Program-made: the position numbers and the translations under genes
The notes under the pieces: generated by a model
What the model was told of the DNA's origin: nothing
The model's database searches: none
Seen by the model: only the letters and a program-made list of their open reading frames with translations
Shown: positions 3,817 through 18,558 of the stretch, piece by piece
How the letters are laid out: every line of letters starts with the position of its first letter
How positions within the stretch are numbered: the first letter of the stretch is position 1
NCBI GenBank assembly: GCA_049513715.1
Contig: JBEKVV010000002.1
Span: forward strand, 416,001-480,000
Reading direction: 5' to 3'
DNA length: 64,000 nt
Origin: Candidatus Bathyarchaeia archaeon
Lineage (GTDB): Archaea > Thermoproteota > Bathyarchaeia > 40CM-2-53-6

Positions 3817-3913
3817 TGGTGCGGCCGCCGGGATTCGGACCCGGGTCGTTGGCTTGGAAGGCCAATGGACGCCTAGAACGGCTATGTCCTAGACCAGGCT
3901 AGACTACGGCCGC
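3817..3913 (-). tRNA. tRNA-Gly(TCC) with 19-nt non-canonical intron at 27/28 (3865-3883); CCA encoded
   Basis: Cloverleaf GCGGCCG/CGGCCGC, anticodon arm TTGGC-CT-TCC-AA-GCCAA after intron removal; BHB with GGAC/GTCC central helix. Confidence 0.92.
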
Positions 3914-11866: not shown

Positions 11867-12457
11867 TTGAAGTGGACATCTGAACTGCCTCGAACAGAGG
11901 GTGGCTGGCGCACCATCCTCGCTGACCCACCATGGCACGAACAAGGATCAGGCAGATGCATTAGAGGAGCACAGAAATACTACCCCCTGATGAGTGAGGA
12001 AGAAATCTGCGCAATTCCACTGCGAGAAATCGTGGCCGACCAAGCCCATCTCTATCTTTGGGCAACTAACAACCATTTTCCTTCAGCACTCACAGTCATG
12101 GAGACATGGGGTTTCACATACAAGACATGCATCACATGGGCCAAGACGTCAGCCGGTTTCGGCTTGGGCCAATACTTCAGGGGAATGACCGAGCATTGCC
12201 TTTTCGGAACTCGTGGACCGACCTTGCCCTATCGCAAGAAACACGACGGCAAGAGAGCCCAGGGCACGACTTTGATCCTTGCCCCACGCGGAGAGCATTC
12301 TGTAAAGCCTGCGAAGATCTATGAGTTCGCAGAGACGGTGAGCTACGAACCTAGACTTGAATTGTTTGCCAGGCAGAAACGACAGGGTTGGACCGTATGG
12401 GGCTTAGAGGCACCGACCGCATCGCAGTCCCTCCTCGATCACACGTTTTCAAGATAA
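11867..12457 (+). CDS. MT-A70 family N6-adenine methyltransferase
   Basis: ILADPPW, HLYLWATN, WGFTYKTCITWAK, GLGQYFRGMTEHCLFG, HSVKP, RLELFAR, GWTVWG. Confidence 0.9.
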   Translation: MKWTSELPRTEGGWRTILADPPWHEQGSGRCIRGAQKYYPLMSEEEICAIPLREIVADQAHLYLWATNNHFPSALTVMETWGFTYKTCITWAKTSAGFGLGQYFRGMTEHCLFGTRGPTLPYRKKHDGKRAQGTTLILAPRGEHSVKPAKIYEFAETVSYEPRLELFARQKRQGWTVWGLEAPTASQSLLDHTFSR

Positions 12458-12546
12458 GTGAAGTTGGCAACTTCCAAAATCTCATCGAAGTTCTTATGCC
12501 GAAGGATCTATAGATCCATGAGTACGATTACGCTTAGCGTGTAATC

Positions 12547-13098
12547 TTGTCTCGGACTAGAATTCAGCAACAAGGCGACTTGGGCCAAAGAGCGGTTTGT
12601 AAGTACTGTATCTGCCCGAAGTGCAAGAAAGGAAGACTCAAGCAACTCATAGGCGGTTTCAAATGCGCAGATGTGATTTGCGATTTTTGCGGCTTTGTAG
12701 CCCAGGTGAAAGCTCCTGCGGTGAGAACAGCGAGTGACAGAGTGTTGACGATACTCGGTGGCGCGTGGAAAGTTCAGGAGGAGAAACTGAACGCGGGGAT
12801 TTATCACCCATTGTATATCGTCAAGATCGTTAATGGCAAACCTGTTGCGATTGATTACATAGCTGCTGACTTTCTAAGACCCGAAATGTACGTAGCAAGG
12901 AAAGCACTTAGTGCAAAGGCGAGGCGCGCGGGTTGGCAAGGGTTCATTTACGATTTAAGAAAGCTCGATGACCATGTCGTAGTCGAAGTATGGCCGAATT
13001 TGAGTCCACCGAAGACTGAAACGAAGCCACAGACAACTGACAAGTCAAAAGGAACAGAAAAGCAATCGATAGATACGAGACTAGATCGGTTTCGCTGA
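12547..13098 (+). CDS. DpnI/Dam-replacing-protein-like nuclease domain
   Basis: CPKC..ADVICDFC..QVK, ILGGAW, RKALSAKARRAGWQG resemble the DpnI N-terminal domain. Confidence 0.7.
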   Translation: MSRTRIQQQGDLGQRAVCKYCICPKCKKGRLKQLIGGFKCADVICDFCGFVAQVKAPAVRTASDRVLTILGGAWKVQEEKLNAGIYHPLYIVKIVNGKPVAIDYIAADFLRPEMYVARKALSAKARRAGWQGFIYDLRKLDDHVVVEVWPNLSPPKTETKPQTTDKSKGTEKQSIDTRLDRFR

Positions 13099-13163: not shown

Positions 13164-13670
13164 TTGTCGGAAAGGCGGCTCAGGTTCAGGATAAGGCGCG
13201 GTAACTTTGAGGTGGAGCTTGAAGGAGACCATGAGTATGTACGTGGCAAGTTTGAGGAGTTGCTCCAATCTCAACCCACAGCTGCCCTAGCTACATCATC
13301 GGGCGGCGGCGACCAATCAGTTGAAGCAATCGTTCCTGGTGAGGAGTTGGTGGGGATTTTGGAGGCGACGCCGGATGGTAAGTTGCATTTTACGATTCCG
13401 TTTGATAGGATTTCGGCGAAGGAAGCCATCGGCTTAATCCTATACAGCGGTAACCCGTCTCCGGTTGAGGATGCGAAGTTGATTGAGTGGCTGGGGACGA
13501 GTTGGAAGGCGGTTAAGGATAATGTGGTTCGCGCTCGGGTGAGCGAGTTAAGGAAGGAGGGCAAGCTTATCGCAGAACAGGGTCGCTACTCGCTCTCAGG
13601 CGCAGGCTTGCAGTGGATCACGCAGGAGGTTCTCCCGAAACTCCGCCCGCCACCATCCACCACACAGTAA
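13164..13670 (+). CDS. Winged-helix protein, paralog 1
   Basis: N-term FRIRRGNFEVELEG; C-term VRARVSELRKEGKLIAEQGRYSLSGAG. Confidence 0.75.
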   Translation: MSERRLRFRIRRGNFEVELEGDHEYVRGKFEELLQSQPTAALATSSGGGDQSVEAIVPGEELVGILEATPDGKLHFTIPFDRISAKEAIGLILYSGNPSPVEDAKLIEWLGTSWKAVKDNVVRARVSELRKEGKLIAEQGRYSLSGAGLQWITQEVLPKLRPPPSTTQ

Positions 13671-13958
13671 CCTGCAAGCTCTCGCCGCAACTAGTTCCTT
13701 TTCAGCGCGGCTAGTTATGGTTGGGGTGCGAAGAGGTCCCATTTCGTGTAGAAAGAGGGCCCACTTCACCGGTCGGGTTCAAGGAAATTGGCACAACACG
13801 ACTAGGTCTCAGGTAGGACGGTTCACAGCCCCGGACAACAGGTTACTGCTGATTGGTTGGTAGCTAGGTTGTTTTGGCCTCTTGCTGTGAATTGTCCTGG
13901 GAAAACCCAAGGCAGGGTGTCGGGCACGTGTTTGTTTTGGTCTGAGAGAGAGGGGAGG

Positions 13959-14242
13959 GGTGACATCACTTGATGGTGAGGTTCGCAAGATTGGACACAC
14001 CCGATGTTTGGGTGTGGCTCTTTTCATACATCCTCCGCGGGTCAGGTGAGGGCCTCAAGGTGTAATGCACCCGATGATTGGGTGCAATGCTCCCTATGCA
14101 GTACCCCTACCGGGGGGGTCACCTAAGCGTTGGGTGATTTCACCCTGCAGGAAACATGAGGGCTTCAAGGTGACAGTCACCTGATGTTTGGGTGCACCCT
14201 TTCCTCCGCGGGTGTATACACCCAAACGTTGGGTGTATACAC
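13959..14242. repeat. Array of 17-bp palindromes CACCYRANNNTTGGGTG (copy 2)
   Basis: Copies at 13998, 14068, 14120, 14178, 14219; 40-bp direct repeat 14047-14086/14157-14196 (33/40). Confidence 0.85.
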
Positions 14243-14300
14243 TTCTACCTGTCAAAGTGATTCCGTCGCCTACGTTGCCGAATACTCGCGGTCGTGGACT

Positions 14301-14606
14301 TCATGTGCGTTGGGTGGATGTGCTTTCGGCAGCATGGTGTCCTTTGAGTCGAGTGTTATCTTTGGTTTGTTGAAGCCACCGGAGGCGTTCTGCTCCGCGT
14401 TCTGAAAGTGAGTAAACTAGTACTCCTCCCTGCCGTTCTCGTTTCAATAGGCCAAGTTTGTAGTATCGCATCAACGCCATCCGGAGCGCATGAATCTCAA
14501 CCAAGATTCCGATGGGGGCCAGTCTTTTCGCTAGGGCTTCGCTATCTGTGGGGCCGACTTCAGAGAGCGCCTGAAGAATGACCAGTTTGAGTTGGTTATA
14601 GTCCAA
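14301..14606 (-). CDS. Small PadR-like winged-helix protein
   Basis: LVILQALSE...ALRMALMRYYKLGLLKRERQGGVLVYSLSERG. Confidence 0.75.
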   Translation of the reverse strand: MDYNQLKLVILQALSEVGPTDSEALAKRLAPIGILVEIHALRMALMRYYKLGLLKRERQGGVLVYSLSERGAERLRWLQQTKDNTRLKGHHAAESTSTQRT

Positions 14607-14840
14607 ACCTAGCCCTCACGTCCCCTTGAAGCGGCTGTCGCACGGTCGCCGTTGAGCTGGTGCACGTTAGATGGCCAATGAGCTGAAGGTGAGTAACACC
14701 TCGCAGAACTCTCAGCTCTGACACAATCTTGTATGGCAATGCACATTGCAACGTGCATGACGATGAGTAACACCTAGCAGGAATATTGCGCACTTCAAAG
14801 CTTATATGCTTTGCGAGAGTGAATGTGAAGTGAAAGTAAA

Positions 14841-15368
14841 ATGTCGGAAGGCCAACAGCAGCTCTCAAGCGTAGGACAACCACTAGACGTCACAATCAAG
14901 TACGGCTCACTGGAGAAAAAAATCACCGGCCAACCCGAACTCGTCATCAAAGAAGTCCTCACATTTCTAACAAAAATCATCCCCACGCTCGAACTTGCAT
15001 CGCACCTCGCACTCTCAGTCGACCTAAACGAACTAGCCCAAGCCTGCCAAGGCGTTCTCGCCGTAACCCCTGAAGGCGTAGTGGTCACCGTCCCAATCGA
15101 GAGCCTAGCTGATCGGGAGCTCATTCTACTCCACTTGGCCAAAGCTCGAATCGCTCAAATGCTCGGCAAGTCCGACAAGGACTATGTCCAATCAGCCGAC
15201 TTGATTGCGGCCACGAAACGAACCTCCGGAACCGTAGCAGGCCGCCTCAGCGAACTCTGCGGAGAAAACTTGGCGGAAAGAAAGGGCAAAGGCGAGTACC
15301 GCGCCACAACCCTCGGCCTACACATCTTCCGAGAGCAAATCCTTCCGAAACTGAAACCAAAAACATAG
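14841..15368 (+). CDS. Winged-helix protein, paralog 2
   Basis: GVLAVTPEG; TVAGRLSELCGENLAERKGKGEYRATTLG; ends EQILPKLK like paralog 1 QEVLPKLR. Confidence 0.75.
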   Translation: MSEGQQQLSSVGQPLDVTIKYGSLEKKITGQPELVIKEVLTFLTKIIPTLELASHLALSVDLNELAQACQGVLAVTPEGVVVTVPIESLADRELILLHLAKARIAQMLGKSDKDYVQSADLIAATKRTSGTVAGRLSELCGENLAERKGKGEYRATTLGLHIFREQILPKLKPKT

Positions 15369-15380
15369 GAGTCGCAAACA

Positions 15381-15884
15381 GTGTCAAGAACAGAAACTGT
15401 GCAAATCAAAATCCAGGTTGAAGTCAACGGGTTACATTACGAAGCCTCAGGGTCTGTTGAGGAGATTGTTCCGCAACTTCTCCAGTTCCTATCACAGGCA
15501 GTCCCGACGTACGATTTGGCGAAGAGGCTCGTCTTTGTCCCTGACCTAGCCGGTTTGACCGACAAGGTGTCAGACTTCGCAAAGATGACTGCCACAGGAC
15601 AACTGCTGCTCACTCGCAATGATATCCCAGCGGACCGGGCTATCTCAATTCTACTATTCATGGCCCACCTTGCCGGCAAGATGGGCAAACGGGAATCAGA
15701 TTCCTTGAGCATCGAGGAGATCGCAACCGGCGTTGGCAAGGCGCCCAAGACCATTAGGAACGTGATCGTTGAACTCCAAAAATCCGCGCTCATTGACCGA
15801 ACGGATAGGGGAAAGTATCGGGTCACTCAGAAGGGTTTGATGCAACTCGAAACTTTCCTGCTCAACGGAGGCGCTTCAAAGTAG
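15381..15884 (+). CDS. Winged-helix protein, paralog 3
   Basis: AGGAG RBS; LSIEEIATGVGKAPKTIRNVIVELQKSALIDRTDRGKYRVTQKG. Confidence 0.75.
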   Translation: MSRTETVQIKIQVEVNGLHYEASGSVEEIVPQLLQFLSQAVPTYDLAKRLVFVPDLAGLTDKVSDFAKMTATGQLLLTRNDIPADRAISILLFMAHLAGKMGKRESDSLSIEEIATGVGKAPKTIRNVIVELQKSALIDRTDRGKYRVTQKGLMQLETFLLNGGASK

Positions 15885-15982
15885 CACGAGGTGCCCACCA
15901 AAATCATGGCCCTTACTCAAGGTGAGGGTGCGGCGGCGCGGGAGTTTCGGGGGAAACAGCCCGCAACGGGGGCGAGAGTAAC

Positions 15983-17104
15983 ATGAACCACCGCACCCAC
16001 CCATCAGCAGCTACGGAGCAGCAGAGGATAAGTAACTTTCTCTACCCAGACGACGTGCTCAGCCCAGGCGCCCTACCAGAACGTTTCATCGAATTTTGCC
16101 GAACCTCAATCGAGGGCGTACGCGGAGACGTACTATACACAGAATCAGCAATCGCTCCAACCTTCAACGTGCCCGAATTCGACGACGAAGACGCCCGCTC
16201 CATCGAACTCAACCAACTCCACGAAGAACGCATAATCCCACTCAAGCCAACAAAGTCAAACCGCCCCGTCGCCGCCATCGACACCTCCACCATCAAACTC
16301 GGCGAACTCGCCGACGGCACACTCTGCGCACTTCGAGGTGCAGTCGTATTGCTCGAAAACGGACGCTACAGATACGTCCGATACGGTCCGCTCGTTTTCT
16401 CTCTCGGTAACAATAGCTTGGCAGATTTCAGCGGATTCGGAAACCTCACGCTGTCTCCATTTACTGGCGAGCCCAACGTTGACAGCCTCCTCAAACGGGT
16501 ACGAAACATCCTCGAACGCTGGCTTCAGTTCAGCGTCAGTTCATCAATCTCGAACGGATTCGTACTGATCGATGGCTCCCTAACGGCTGGCACGCCGGAC
16601 AACCCGTCAAAGGAACTGGAACGAATTCTTGAAACCGCCCGCCGAAACCGAAGCATAGTCGCCGCCATATCCAAGAAAACAAAATTACGCATCAACAACA
16701 AATCCATAACCGAACTCCTGGAGCATCGGATAGAACCTTGCCTGTTGAATGTGGACGCGGAGGTCACAGAGCAATTTCCACCCTACCCCGTGCGCTTTCT
16801 CGGCCGCGTCTTCGTAGGTAGGCTAGCAAAGTCCGGTTATCCATTCAGAATGGATGTCGACCGCGAAATACCACTCCAAGACACCGTAACTGGGCTTCAA
16901 CAATTAACTGGAACAGACATTGTTGACCAGGGCTACCCTGAAACGCTGCGCATGGCCCACATACTCTCCACTTTCACCGCCGGCGACGTGCTGGCTATGC
17001 AAGTTGTCGCAGCCGCACAATTCGGCGTTCAACTAATACCTAAACTCGCGCTTCGGCGGTCACTCTTCGGTCCCTTCGGAACAGCTTGGGAGGCTTGGCA
17101 TTGA
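15983..17104 (+). CDS. nurA: NurA-family 5'-3' nuclease
   Basis: VAAIDTS, VLIDGSL, AISKKT, GYPETLRMAH. Confidence 0.8.
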   Translation: MNHRTHPSAATEQQRISNFLYPDDVLSPGALPERFIEFCRTSIEGVRGDVLYTESAIAPTFNVPEFDDEDARSIELNQLHEERIIPLKPTKSNRPVAAIDTSTIKLGELADGTLCALRGAVVLLENGRYRYVRYGPLVFSLGNNSLADFSGFGNLTLSPFTGEPNVDSLLKRVRNILERWLQFSVSSSISNGFVLIDGSLTAGTPDNPSKELERILETARRNRSIVAAISKKTKLRINNKSITELLEHRIEPCLLNVDAEVTEQFPPYPVRFLGRVFVGRLAKSGYPFRMDVDREIPLQDTVTGLQQLTGTDIVDQGYPETLRMAHILSTFTAGDVLAMQVVAAAQFGVQLIPKLALRRSLFGPFGTAWEAWH

Positions 17105-18558
17105 AAATCCTCCGCAAAGAAGGCGACAGCATACACCTACTGAGCTTCCCCGACGAAGAGGTCGAGAAAGGGGACTACCTGTTAGTCACTGACCGAATCA
17201 AGGACCGCTCCCTAATCGTGCAAATCATCGACGTGCAATACGCCAACATACCGGGCATTCTAGAGGACATGTTACGCGACGGCATTTCAGAGGGGTCCTT
17301 TTCGGGGGACGATGTGGACCCGTTCAAAGTATCCTCCCAGATCACAGTTCTGAAGGACACCCGACTTCTGCTGGGAAAGATACGGGGCGCGTTAGAGCAA
17401 GGCCACCTTAGCCGAGACGTCGCATGGCTGCCGTCCCGGAACCATTCGCAGGTGCAAGTCATGCCCCCAAAACTCCTAACAGACTCTCTGGCGGGCAGAC
17501 ACTCATTCGAACTTGGATCCACTCGCCGTTTCCCACACATCGTCTCTGACTTGGCCGCCCTAGATGGGAGATTGAACATAGTTACCGGAAGGAAAGGCAC
17601 CGGGAAATCCCATCTCACAAAACTCCTCGTTACGAGCCTCGTGAAAGAGGGGGCGCCCGTGATTGTCTTCGACGTAAATGGGGAATATGTGAACCTAGGG
17701 AGGACCTCGGATGGCCGCGAAATGCACCTTTCACCAAAAATCATTTCACTTATCCCCGGCATCAACCTGAGATTCAGTCTCAGCCAAGTCGGCCTGGCCA
17801 CGCTCCTTGGAACTCTGATTTACGCCCTCTCCCTCCCGGAAAACTCAGCCCGGGTGTTCGCAAGGATCTGGCGCGACCTCGAAGAGCAGAACCAACTAAC
17901 TATGACAGGCCTCGGCGCAGCCATAGCCAATTCCGACTGCCACGACAGCATTAAGGACGCTCTGCAGGCCAGGTTCAACACGCTCGACGATTCAGGCATA
18001 TTCACTGACGACCATCGCACAGCCCTCAACTTAGAAGATGTATTCCGAAACCACTCATCCGGCTGCGCGTTAGTAGTCAACATGAAGAACCAGTACTCAG
18101 CTATGCGCCGAATCACAGTCGAACTCCTAATCAGCAAACTAACAGAACTACTCTCAACCCAAAAGTTACGTGCGCTCTTCCTGTTCGCTGAAGAGGCTCA
18201 CTTGTACCTTCGCGAAACCTACTGGGACGATGTTGTCACAAGAATGCGCCATCTGGGCATGTTCACAACCTTCGTAACCAATCAGCCAGACACAATCCAA
18301 AGCAGCATCTATCGGCAAGCCGACAATGTCTTTCTCTTTAATTTCAGTAATGACCATGACCTTGACATCGTTTCAAAGGTTGCAAAGGTCGACGCCGACA
18401 CAATCAGAATGATCGTCCGAGACCTTCCTCCGCACAGATGTTTGGTAATAGGAGACGTTGTTGCAAACTTTCCGCTAGTCGTAAACATACGCCCACTTGA
18501 AGTGCAGACCCTAGGCGCTACGCGCTACTTCTTCGAAAACCAACTGGCCGCGGTTTAA
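17101..18558 (+). CDS. herA: HerA/FtsK-like ATPase (DUF87, HAS-barrel)
   Basis: Walker A TGRKGTGKS, VFDVNGEY, Walker B LFAEEAHLY, RMRHLG, VTNQP; TTG overlaps nurA stop. Confidence 0.85.
   Translation: MKILRKEGDSIHLLSFPDEEVEKGDYLLVTDRIKDRSLIVQIIDVQYANIPGILEDMLRDGISEGSFSGDDVDPFKVSSQITVLKDTRLLLGKIRGALEQGHLSRDVAWLPSRNHSQVQVMPPKLLTDSLAGRHSFELGSTRRFPHIVSDLAALDGRLNIVTGRKGTGKSHLTKLLVTSLVKEGAPVIVFDVNGEYVNLGRTSDGREMHLSPKIISLIPGINLRFSLSQVGLATLLGTLIYALSLPENSARVFARIWRDLEEQNQLTMTGLGAAIANSDCHDSIKDALQARFNTLDDSGIFTDDHRTALNLEDVFRNHSSGCALVVNMKNQYSAMRRITVELLISKLTELLSTQKLRALFLFAEEAHLYLRETYWDDVVTRMRHLGMFTTFVTNQPDTIQSSIYRQADNVFLFNFSNDHDLDIVSKVAKVDADTIRMIVRDLPPHRCLVIGDVVANFPLVVNIRPLEVQTLGATRYFFENQLAAV

Follow-up and report, generated by a model that had tools for sequence, protein, structure and literature searches.

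Among archaeal machineries that resect DNA ends, HerA–NurA is the one chiefly studied, and no description of how it is switched or directed outside herA–mre11–rad50–nurA operons was found in the literature searched. Two further mechanisms bear on the locus reported here: FtsK orients on DNA through a winged-helix domain, and cis-antisense RNAs silence the translation of harmful genes (type I antitoxin logic). The catalytic set of Sulfolobus solfataricus NurA was D58/E116/D133/K202/Y298, as given in PMC3326311.

A window of 64,000 nucleotides from Candidatus Bathyarchaeia archaeon (JBEKVV010000002.1 of GCA_049513715.1, positions 416,001–480,000; all coordinates below are window positions) contained a nurA–herA pair preceded by winged-helix genes. 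The explanation towards which we lean, by a modest degree, is a tightly controlled DNA-end-processing operon, whose nuclease–motor would be held down by winged-helix proteins plus a predicted antisense RNA. No description of this cluster was found in the literature searched.

Gene organization of the locus

The following features were recognized:

13164–13670, plus strand: paralog A, the sister of paralog D, with a beta-beta-alpha part plus a winged helix; family undescribed
13958–14242, no strand assigned: palindrome array of alternating GGGTG-N4-CACCC and CACCC-N7-GGGTG, a dispersed repeat outside the conserved system
14301–14606, minus strand: W, stand-alone winged-helix protein (101 aa) in divergent orientation to B; probably binds the two boxes
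14692–14703, plus strand: box 1, AGTAACAYCT type; likely operator
14766–14777, plus strand: box 2, lying 74 bp from box 1 and ~25 bp ahead of the B TATA-like element
14790–14797 and 14826–14833, no strand assigned: inverted pair GCACTTCA / TGAAGTGA, flanking the TATA-like element of B; candidate second operator
14802–14807: TATA-like element of B
14841–15368, plus strand: paralog B, beta-beta-alpha part plus winged helix, whose predicted recognition helix carries a near-invariant GTVAGRLSE
15381–15884, plus strand: paralog C, architecture as B, with invariant K-T-x-x-N in the corresponding helix
15926–15998, minus strand: predicted antisense stem-loop RNA of 73 nt, covering the purine-rich leader and the annotated nurA start
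15983–17104, plus strand: nurA (PF09376, E 7e-8), divergent clade, with D100, E178, D197, K231, and Y318 conserved
16028–16039, minus strand: conserved BRE/TATA-like element of the predicted antisense RNA, within the nurA 5′ end
17086–18558, plus strand: herA (PF01935, E 9e-14), divergent clade H1, with TRMRHxG and Walker A/B conserved; probable start 17101

B, C, nurA, and herA were co-directional, with the nurA and herA reading frames overlapping, just as the original prediction had them; they make up an old chromosomal block and are likely co-transcribed. The herA start was more likely TTG at 17101, where the relatives start and upstream of which GGGAGG lay at 7 nt. The flanking genes were housekeeping ones (gatD/gatE, lysS, topoisomerase, thermosome, Rpo6, and ELP3). 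Neither mre11 nor rad50 was present near the cluster, again as predicted; both were on contig C9 of the same genome, and the locus was not a canonical herA–mre11–rad50–nurA operon. ParA, ParB, and Xer were not found among the ~19 recurrent neighbour families scanned.

Conservation of the block

The order B–C–nurA–herA was found in 36/38 order-level loci, and the remaining two stopped at contig ends. Behind B in the 80 named loci (which overlapped with the genomes of that 38-locus count) were this nurA clade in 75, another NurA clade in three, and a contig end in two. Phylum-wide, a B-family gene lay ≤5 kb from this nurA clade in 67 of the 86 genomes having both, and the two were apart or on separate contigs in 19. 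This linkage of the winged-helix genes with nurA–herA is old and not due to chance, because it was kept across Bathyarchaeia and other Thermoproteota; the neighbourhood comparison proposed with the original prediction therefore came out for retained linkage, and the coincidental co-location that the prediction had allowed for can be set aside. The paralog family, unannotated so far, was present in ~100 of 301 sampled Thermoproteota genomes.

It is quite unlikely, in our judgement, that the paralogs act in chromatin or general transcription, their link with nurA–herA being simply inherited order in a housekeeping region. The neighbours were indeed housekeeping genes, A (usually ~1 kb upstream of B) stood elsewhere in the genome in two relatives (L066 and L067), and the link was weaker in the rest of the class (16/28 genomes), but it was retained in 51/58 genomes of other classes, the flanking genes differed between lineages while the paralog–nurA–herA core was constant, and the promoter box described below was nearly unique to this locus.

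No paralog was found fused to NurA or HerA in the 48 class/phylum loci checked. The 616-aa frame of L273 was an apparent shadow frame, and an apparent intein lay in the long HerA of L176/L177.

NurA and HerA

HerA scored 52.5 bits on PF01935 (cut-off 23.2), and its motifs GxKxxGKS, EEA, and TRMRHxG (the last of which we take to be the arginine-finger motif) were invariant in 22 sequences. Its N-terminal region was conserved, with no Pfam HAS match there, while residues 167–478 matched 4D2I at E 1e-3. On the DSB-repair equivalogs NF040937 and NF040819, it scored only 14 and 13 bits against cut-offs of 800 and 970, respectively, and it formed its own clade on a long branch in a quick tree (SH-aLRT 100) whose deep forks were not resolved. 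NurA scored 32.7 bits on PF09376 (curated cut-off 21) and had no PADLOC match; its residues D100/E178/D197/K231/Y318, equated to the S. solfataricus set of PMC3326311 by motif and order rather than by direct alignment, were invariant or ≥90% conserved in 26 sequences. On sequence grounds, NurA–HerA made up a divergent, separate clade, and the nuclease–motor is likely active.

Winged-helix proteins and promoter boxes

A, B, and C were paralogs sharing one architecture, as originally described: the profile comparison of B with A gave 98% probability across 162 columns, the predicted model of B (pLDDT 83) displayed a beta-beta-alpha part, a T-P-E-G hairpin, and a C-terminal winged helix, and the ILPKL/VLPKL ends were present. 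W was of another kind. It contained no beta-beta-alpha part and did not belong to the A/B/C family, its best Pfam match was PaaX-like (E 3.7e-5, below the family cut-off), and no PadR match was found in Pfam at E 0.05; the four winged-helix genes counted at the outset thus comprised three paralogs and the unrelated W, and the 101-aa protein, which had been called PadR-like, lost that label. In the sample searched, W did not occur outside the order.

For A and B, no named homologue was found in Pfam, NCBIfam, PADLOC, the 120 best database matches, or Atlas, and the N-terminal part of the paralogs gave a best Z of 3.3 and no Foldseek match under E 1; the beta-beta-alpha/winged-helix family of A, B, and C is undescribed. 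A ZapA-like identity of this N-terminal part was rejected, the weak ZapA rows not being significant. The B winged helix had AspA as its top Foldseek row (E 3e-3), many MarR/ArsR proteins scoring equally. A, B, and C are probably DNA binders, which would oligomerise via the beta-beta-alpha part.

Two promoter types were distinguished in the 77 of 80 loci with enough upstream DNA: (i) W loci, with the AGTAACAYCT box in 52/52 (two exact copies in 48) and the D palindrome in none, and (ii) D loci, having paralog D in the slot of W, with the ACGTWACGT palindrome in 19/25 and the AGTAACAYCT box in none. From this one-to-one co-occurrence in the same slot, we infer that W would bind the two predicted operator boxes and that in part of the order both gene and operator were exchanged, W taking over from D; however, W and D loci were confined to few families (f1, f7, and f9 for W), so the correlation may go back to a single evolutionary event, and the GTAAC core was common to both motifs, so B or C could be the binder instead. 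The two boxes lay between W and B, 72–74 bp (~seven turns) apart, a spacing from which W would probably bridge both. The inverted pair flanking the B TATA-like element was conserved within the genus, ACGT repeats were also seen by eye upstream of D in several more distant loci, and the TATA-like element of W looked degenerate in this genome.

As for specificity, 10/11 sites of the exact 12-mer box in five genomes were at this locus. Genome-wide counts showed no regulon for either motif: three exact 12-mers of the W box in this genome versus one expected, and 11 sites of the D palindrome in five genomes versus nine for the control.

B and C remained when W and D swapped, and their helices were invariant whichever operator stood upstream. 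This constancy would also suit a possible, if doubtful, alternative in which B and C (perhaps A) form a hetero-oligomeric adaptor loading or directing HerA–NurA and replacing Mre11–Rad50, with only W/D regulating. B and C were co-directional immediately ahead of nurA, mre11 was far from the cluster in 23/23 order-level genomes having both, the paralog family and this nurA clade had near-identical distributions over families, and the winged-helix orientation of FtsK offers a parallel. Against this, B-family genes also adjoined the other HerA–NurA clade (9/13 fetched genomes without this nurA) and mre11–rad50 stood directly behind herA in 4/40 class/phylum loci, and thus B and C do not simply replace Mre11–Rad50. 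As a counterpoint to local control, the paralogs, at least three in number and differing in how their recognition helices are conserved, seem many for a single local operator.

A predicted RNA antisense to the nurA start

On the minus strand, a stem-loop preceded by a promoter-like element of its own is conserved: its 5′ arm was found in 57/80 order-level loci and was missing in 23/80, including a branch of the same genus. Its strand was indicated by (i) 47 A·C versus two G·T oppositions on the plus strand in 36 loci, most A·C being in one column; (ii) a lower fold of the minus than of the plus strand in 31/36 loci; (iii) fold z-scores of −4.3 to −6.3 for minus versus −0.8 to −2.9 for plus in 4/4; and (iv) a conserved TATA-like element ~27–30 nt ahead of the RNA. 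Complementarity to the start and to the purine-rich leader lay in an unpaired pyrimidine-rich stretch of the RNA. In L159, L162, L163, and L174, the other NurA clade was preceded by this same RNA and promoter, so the control part persisted through an exchange of the downstream nuclease; no such RNA was found at 17/21 other class/phylum nurA starts examined, and the 73-nt sequence had no Rfam match. Some relatives had no ATG at the place matching the annotated nurA start, and with that start uncertain, the predicted RNA may only adjoin nurA. An upstream ORF in the C–nurA spacer was rejected, its reading frame not being kept. Taken with the promoter boxes, these conserved cis elements at the promoters and the nurA start point to control of expression.

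Palindrome array

Five CACC(C/T)-N7-GGGTG sites (13998, 14068, 14120, 14178, and 14219; irregular spacings of 70, 52, 58, and 41) made up an array on which A and W converged, as originally noted for W. The array was real and far above chance (five sites against 0–1 in 1000 shuffles) but not specific to this locus: it recurred at ≥8 other places in this genome, and the composite pattern had 21 genome matches versus 1–6 for control spacings. The original prediction had winged-helix adaptors loading HerA–NurA at this array for segregation or terminus processing within a chromosome-organising system. Two other copies did have mre11–rad50 at 2.2 kb and a second nurA-like/herA pair at 3.4 kb, with a chance of ~0.02 for ≥2/5 array loci near such genes that was noticed after the fact; still, BLAST matched the array in none of 160 related loci, short matches occurred in only 4/60 relatives (all of the same genus, none beside the cluster or the second nurA-like gene), and two copies flanked an apparent toxin–antitoxin cassette as direct repeats, judged by eye. 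Being scattered and absent from the related loci, the array fails as a centromere or conserved loading site, and a chromosome-organising role for it is now highly improbable and already largely refuted. In relatives, the array was unlinked from the genes, while the winged-helix genes kept their linkage with nurA–herA.

Other origins were examined as well: a coding repeat was rejected since the spacings were not multiples of three, two exact patterns had zero matches in viral contigs, and, casposon ends being considered, no Cas1 (PF01867) match was found in this genome. The array is a dispersed repeat specific to this lineage, probably the remnant of a mobile element, that came to lie in the variable A–W gap; a false lead was thereby removed, and the array lies outside the system.

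Proposed control of the nuclease–motor

The controlled end-processing operon that we prefer would act at two levels: (i) winged-helix proteins, predicted binders of the conserved promoter boxes, would lower expression, W binding two boxes and probably bridging them, with A, B, and C as putative co-regulators of the block; and (ii) the predicted antisense RNA would block nurA translation. HerA–NurA itself, by analogy with Sulfolobus, would unwind and resect DNA ends. In a more novel but unlikely combination, a hetero-oligomer of the ancient paralog family would license and load a separate HerA–NurA clade without Mre11–Rad50, while the exchangeable repressor–operator and the antisense RNA would keep the nuclease silent until needed; if true, Bathyarchaeia, Caldarchaeales, and Brockarchaeota would possess a DNA-end-processing machine that is self-contained and can be switched. 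The block offers testable parts: W with a likely operator readable from co-variation, a natural D-to-W swap with its operator, a predicted antisense RNA surviving nuclease replacement, and an unannotated winged-helix family.

Comparison with known systems

The locus shared the NurA catalytic set and HerA motifs with the archaeal HerA–NurA end-resection complex (S. solfataricus, PMC3326311; 4D2I), but it differed in its separate long-branch clade, winged-helix paralogs, and predicted antisense RNA. The canonical herA–mre11–rad50–nurA operons were approached by the overlapping nurA–herA and by the mre11–rad50 placement in the four distant loci, whereas mre11–rad50 was on another contig here. Type I antitoxin RNAs resembled the predicted RNA in having an opposite-strand promoter-like element of its own and a pyrimidine-rich stretch against a purine-rich leader, yet the target here was a repair-type nuclease in a core operon, and the RNA had no Rfam family.

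AspA of the AspA–ParB–ParA system of plasmid pNOB8 (4RS8 and 5K5Q; PMC9178275) was the top structural match, but that match covered the B winged helix only, with many MarR/ArsR proteins tying; moreover, the locus here was chromosomal and vertically inherited, with no ParA/ParB among the neighbours scanned and no conserved centromere-like array. Anti-phage HerA (Sir2–HerA and HerA–DUF4297; PADLOC/NCBIfam) was matched weakly by HerA profiles (E 1e-9 to 1e-11), with 34.8 bits against a cut-off of 800 on NF042943; in contrast to these systems, the partner here was NurA, and the core-genome position was fixed and followed taxonomy.

Genes and proteins of the block

All six open reading frames named by the original prediction were present where it had placed them, and the block region contained the following features:

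13164-13670 (+), A, beta-beta-alpha plus winged-helix paralog
13958-14242, palindrome array between A and W
14301-14606 (-), W, 101-aa winged-helix gene
14692 and 14766, two AGTAACAYCT boxes between W and B
14841-15368 (+), B, paralog of A
15381-15884 (+), C, paralog of A
15926-15936 and 15988-15998, stem-loop arms between C and nurA
15983-17104 (+), nurA
17086-18558 (+), herA

The nurA and herA products scored over the cut-offs for PF09376 and PF01935, respectively, and A, B, and C were paralogous to one another. The architecture proposed as common to A, B, and C held; W was devoid of the N-terminal beta-beta-alpha part, nor did W, described earlier as PadR-like, give any PadR match. The B model (built from 31 sequences, pLDDT 83) displayed beta-beta-alpha, two short helices, a T-P-E-G hairpin, and a winged helix; fold searches placed the winged helix alone (best Z 10.6, rmsd 2.8, 83 residues), its best matches being tied with MarR/ArsR proteins, and Foldseek returned AspA at the top (E 3e-3, winged helix alone matched). 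The N-terminal part, folded separately, gave an open beta-beta-alpha unit (pLDDT 77), which suggests that this unit of A, B, and C may be an oligomerisation part. Distant loci harbored further family members: D, which is sister to A, together with E and F, which by eye had this layout but a weak link to B (36%). A quick tree divided A plus D from B plus C as separate, old groups.

NurA carried conserved D100, E178, D197, K231, and Y318, the residue set reported for S. solfataricus NurA (PMC3326311). HerA kept its ATPase motifs, scored far below canonical HerA equivalog cut-offs, and fell into its own long-branch clade, H1, which followed taxonomy (quick tree, 45 rows).

Conservation and gene neighborhood

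B was present in 56/61 genomes of the order, and the predicted linkage of winged-helix genes with nurA-herA was borne out in relatives: the order B-C-nurA-herA was found in 36 of the 38 loci fetched around B, the remaining two being cut at contig ends. Among 80 named loci (partly from the same genomes as these 38), the nuclease gene behind B was H1-type nurA in 75 and a nurA of a different clade in 3; the last 2 loci were cut off. Of 301 genomes sampled from the phylum, 125 gave a match to the B profile (E 0.001; many of them weak) and 92 to the NurA-clade profile (E 1e-20). The linkage count took in the 105 genomes with a best B match listed: 86 had both genes, which were at most 5 kb apart in 67 (kin not independent; 16/28 inside the class and 51/58 outside it), on different contigs in 16, and far apart in 3. 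Relatives bore the name Bathyarchaeia; database members, nearly always annotated as hypothetical proteins, included Caldarchaeales, Calditenuaceae, and Brockarchaeota. The block was flanked by housekeeping genes differing from lineage to lineage, with ogg behind herA in 11 loci. That the paralog-nurA-herA link is nothing but inherited gene order is considered unlikely; that B and C are physical adaptors of the enzyme is a somewhat better, still doubtful, explanation.

Two other elements of the window were noted: (i) an MT-A70 adenine methyltransferase adjoining a DpnI-family methyl-directed nuclease (11867-13098) just upstream of A, not seen there in relatives, and (ii) a 97-nt tRNA-Pyl with anticodon CUA called by ARAGORN at 3817-3913 (-), which could be a miscalled intron-containing tRNA or a true amber-decoding tRNA.

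Other HerA and mre11 loci

In the source genome, mre11-rad50 was located on contig C9, not at the block, and two additional HerA genes were found, one behind a weakly NurA-like 642-aa gene and one without NurA; thus, the separate canonical herA-mre11-rad50-nurA locus that was to be checked for did not exist as a four-gene unit. Mre11 was away from B in 23/23 order-level genomes having both, and mre11-rad50 stood immediately behind herA in 4/40 class/phylum loci. A second HerA(-NurA) clade, H2, adjoined paralogs in 9/13 fetched genomes without H1 nurA. One locus (L175) had gatD-gatE and four paralogs, then H1 and H2 nurA-herA pairs in tandem, then mre11-rad50, a layout that may resemble the ancestral arrangement.

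The 642-aa gene, followed by a 625-aa HerA (C1:537306-541077; L072, L074), was present in 43/61 relatives, had no Pfam match, and by eye contained an apparent inserted winged helix. H2 HerA of two loci (L176:2562-5156 and L177:2842-5352 [-]) carried a ~330-aa, intein-like insertion at the Walker A motif. Besides a full-length SMC on C2, the source genome also encoded a short SMC-like ATPase of 641 aa with two ScpA-/ScpB-looking genes behind it (C1:595849-600256; L078).

Palindrome array

The array contained five sites (0-1 in 1000 shuffles), and its unit was more aptly described as GGGTG-N4-CACCC alternating with CACCC-N7-GGGTG. The original prediction had put it forward as a candidate loading site of a chromosome-organising system. 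In favor of this, two long copies in the source genome lay near relevant genes: C9:10497-10771 (275 nt, 89% match), 2.2 kb from rad50-mre11, and C1:544476-544777, 3.4 kb from the second nurA-like/herA pair, a proximity of low chance probability (~0.02) noticed after the fact and not repeated in relatives. The composite unit occurred 21 times genome-wide (1-6 for five control spacings), no BLAST match was found in 160 related loci, and short matches appeared in 4/60 relatives only, all of the same genus and none at the cluster; where the array fills the A-W gap, relatives had nothing or unrelated genes. Dispersal and non-conservation together ruled out the array as a member of the conserved block, told against a chromosome-organising system built on it, and left its role as binding or loading site highly improbable.

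By eye, two direct repeat copies bracketed ~1 kb with an apparent HicAB-type toxin-antitoxin pair (C1:869121-870278), a layout suggesting that the palindromic repeat bounds cassettes, and the same repeat lay behind a DpnI-like gene in L220. A further short repeat was located left of the array (13730-13776), with copies at C1:420379 and C6:66702.

Promoter boxes and the mutual exclusion of W and D

In the 38-locus set, the AGTAACAYCT box pair was found in 25/26 W loci, the remaining one having a single exact copy, and upstream of B in 0/12 W-less loci. The boxes were spaced by 72-74 bp when direct and by 82-84 bp with the second inverted, and the box was close to unique per genome. Three of the 80 named loci had no upstream DNA; in the other 77, W and D were mutually exclusive in the slot ahead of B: (i) W loci had the box in 52/52 and the D motif ACGTWACGT in 0/52, and (ii) D loci had ACGTWACGT in 19/25 (11/11 aligned D promoters) and the box in 0/25. 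The two motifs had GTAAC in common, and strong W matches were confined to the order in the sample searched. From this exclusion, the simplest inference is that W displaced D along with its operator and that the family would include sequence-specific regulators of the block; the correlation may rest on a single evolutionary event.

A G+C-rich stretch (14641-14648) stood where relatives have a TATA-like element ahead of W, and W may therefore be weakly expressed in the source genome. An exact W-type box in the 3' portion of an ORF resembling ParB (C3:378715), ~430 bases before a TrmB-like-looking gene (both by eye), was probably due to chance.

Predicted antisense RNA at the nurA start

The 5' arm of the stem-loop was found in 57/80 named loci; both arms were recovered in 36 of the 42 sequences analyzed, which comprised the window's own copy and 41 drawn from those 57. 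Wobble positions favored the minus strand (47 vs 2), as did folding energy (31/36) and z-scores, and a TATA-like element lay at constant distance ahead of the stem-loop on that strand. An unpaired stretch of the predicted RNA showed complementarity to the leader and the start of nurA. The stem-loop was likewise present ahead of the H2-type gene in 4 loci, and 17 further nurA starts gave no match to it; the RNA had no Rfam match.

Proposed mechanism and relation to known systems

Gene order, its conservation, the motifs, and their co-variation were observed directly in the comparison, and on these we lean towards the following scheme: W would bridge the two boxes, setting transcription of B-C-nurA-herA; the predicted antisense RNA would block nurA translation; A, B, and C would oligomerise and bind DNA; and the NurA-HerA enzyme would resect DNA ends. 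The block was genuine and conserved, and it has apparently not been described in published work: no description was found in the open-access literature searched, including PMC7554672 (figure-legend mentions), PMC9905601, PMC3326311, and PMC9178275, and arCOG-type supplementary tables may list the families. Compared to known systems, the block would represent a known machine, HerA-NurA, with new control parts.
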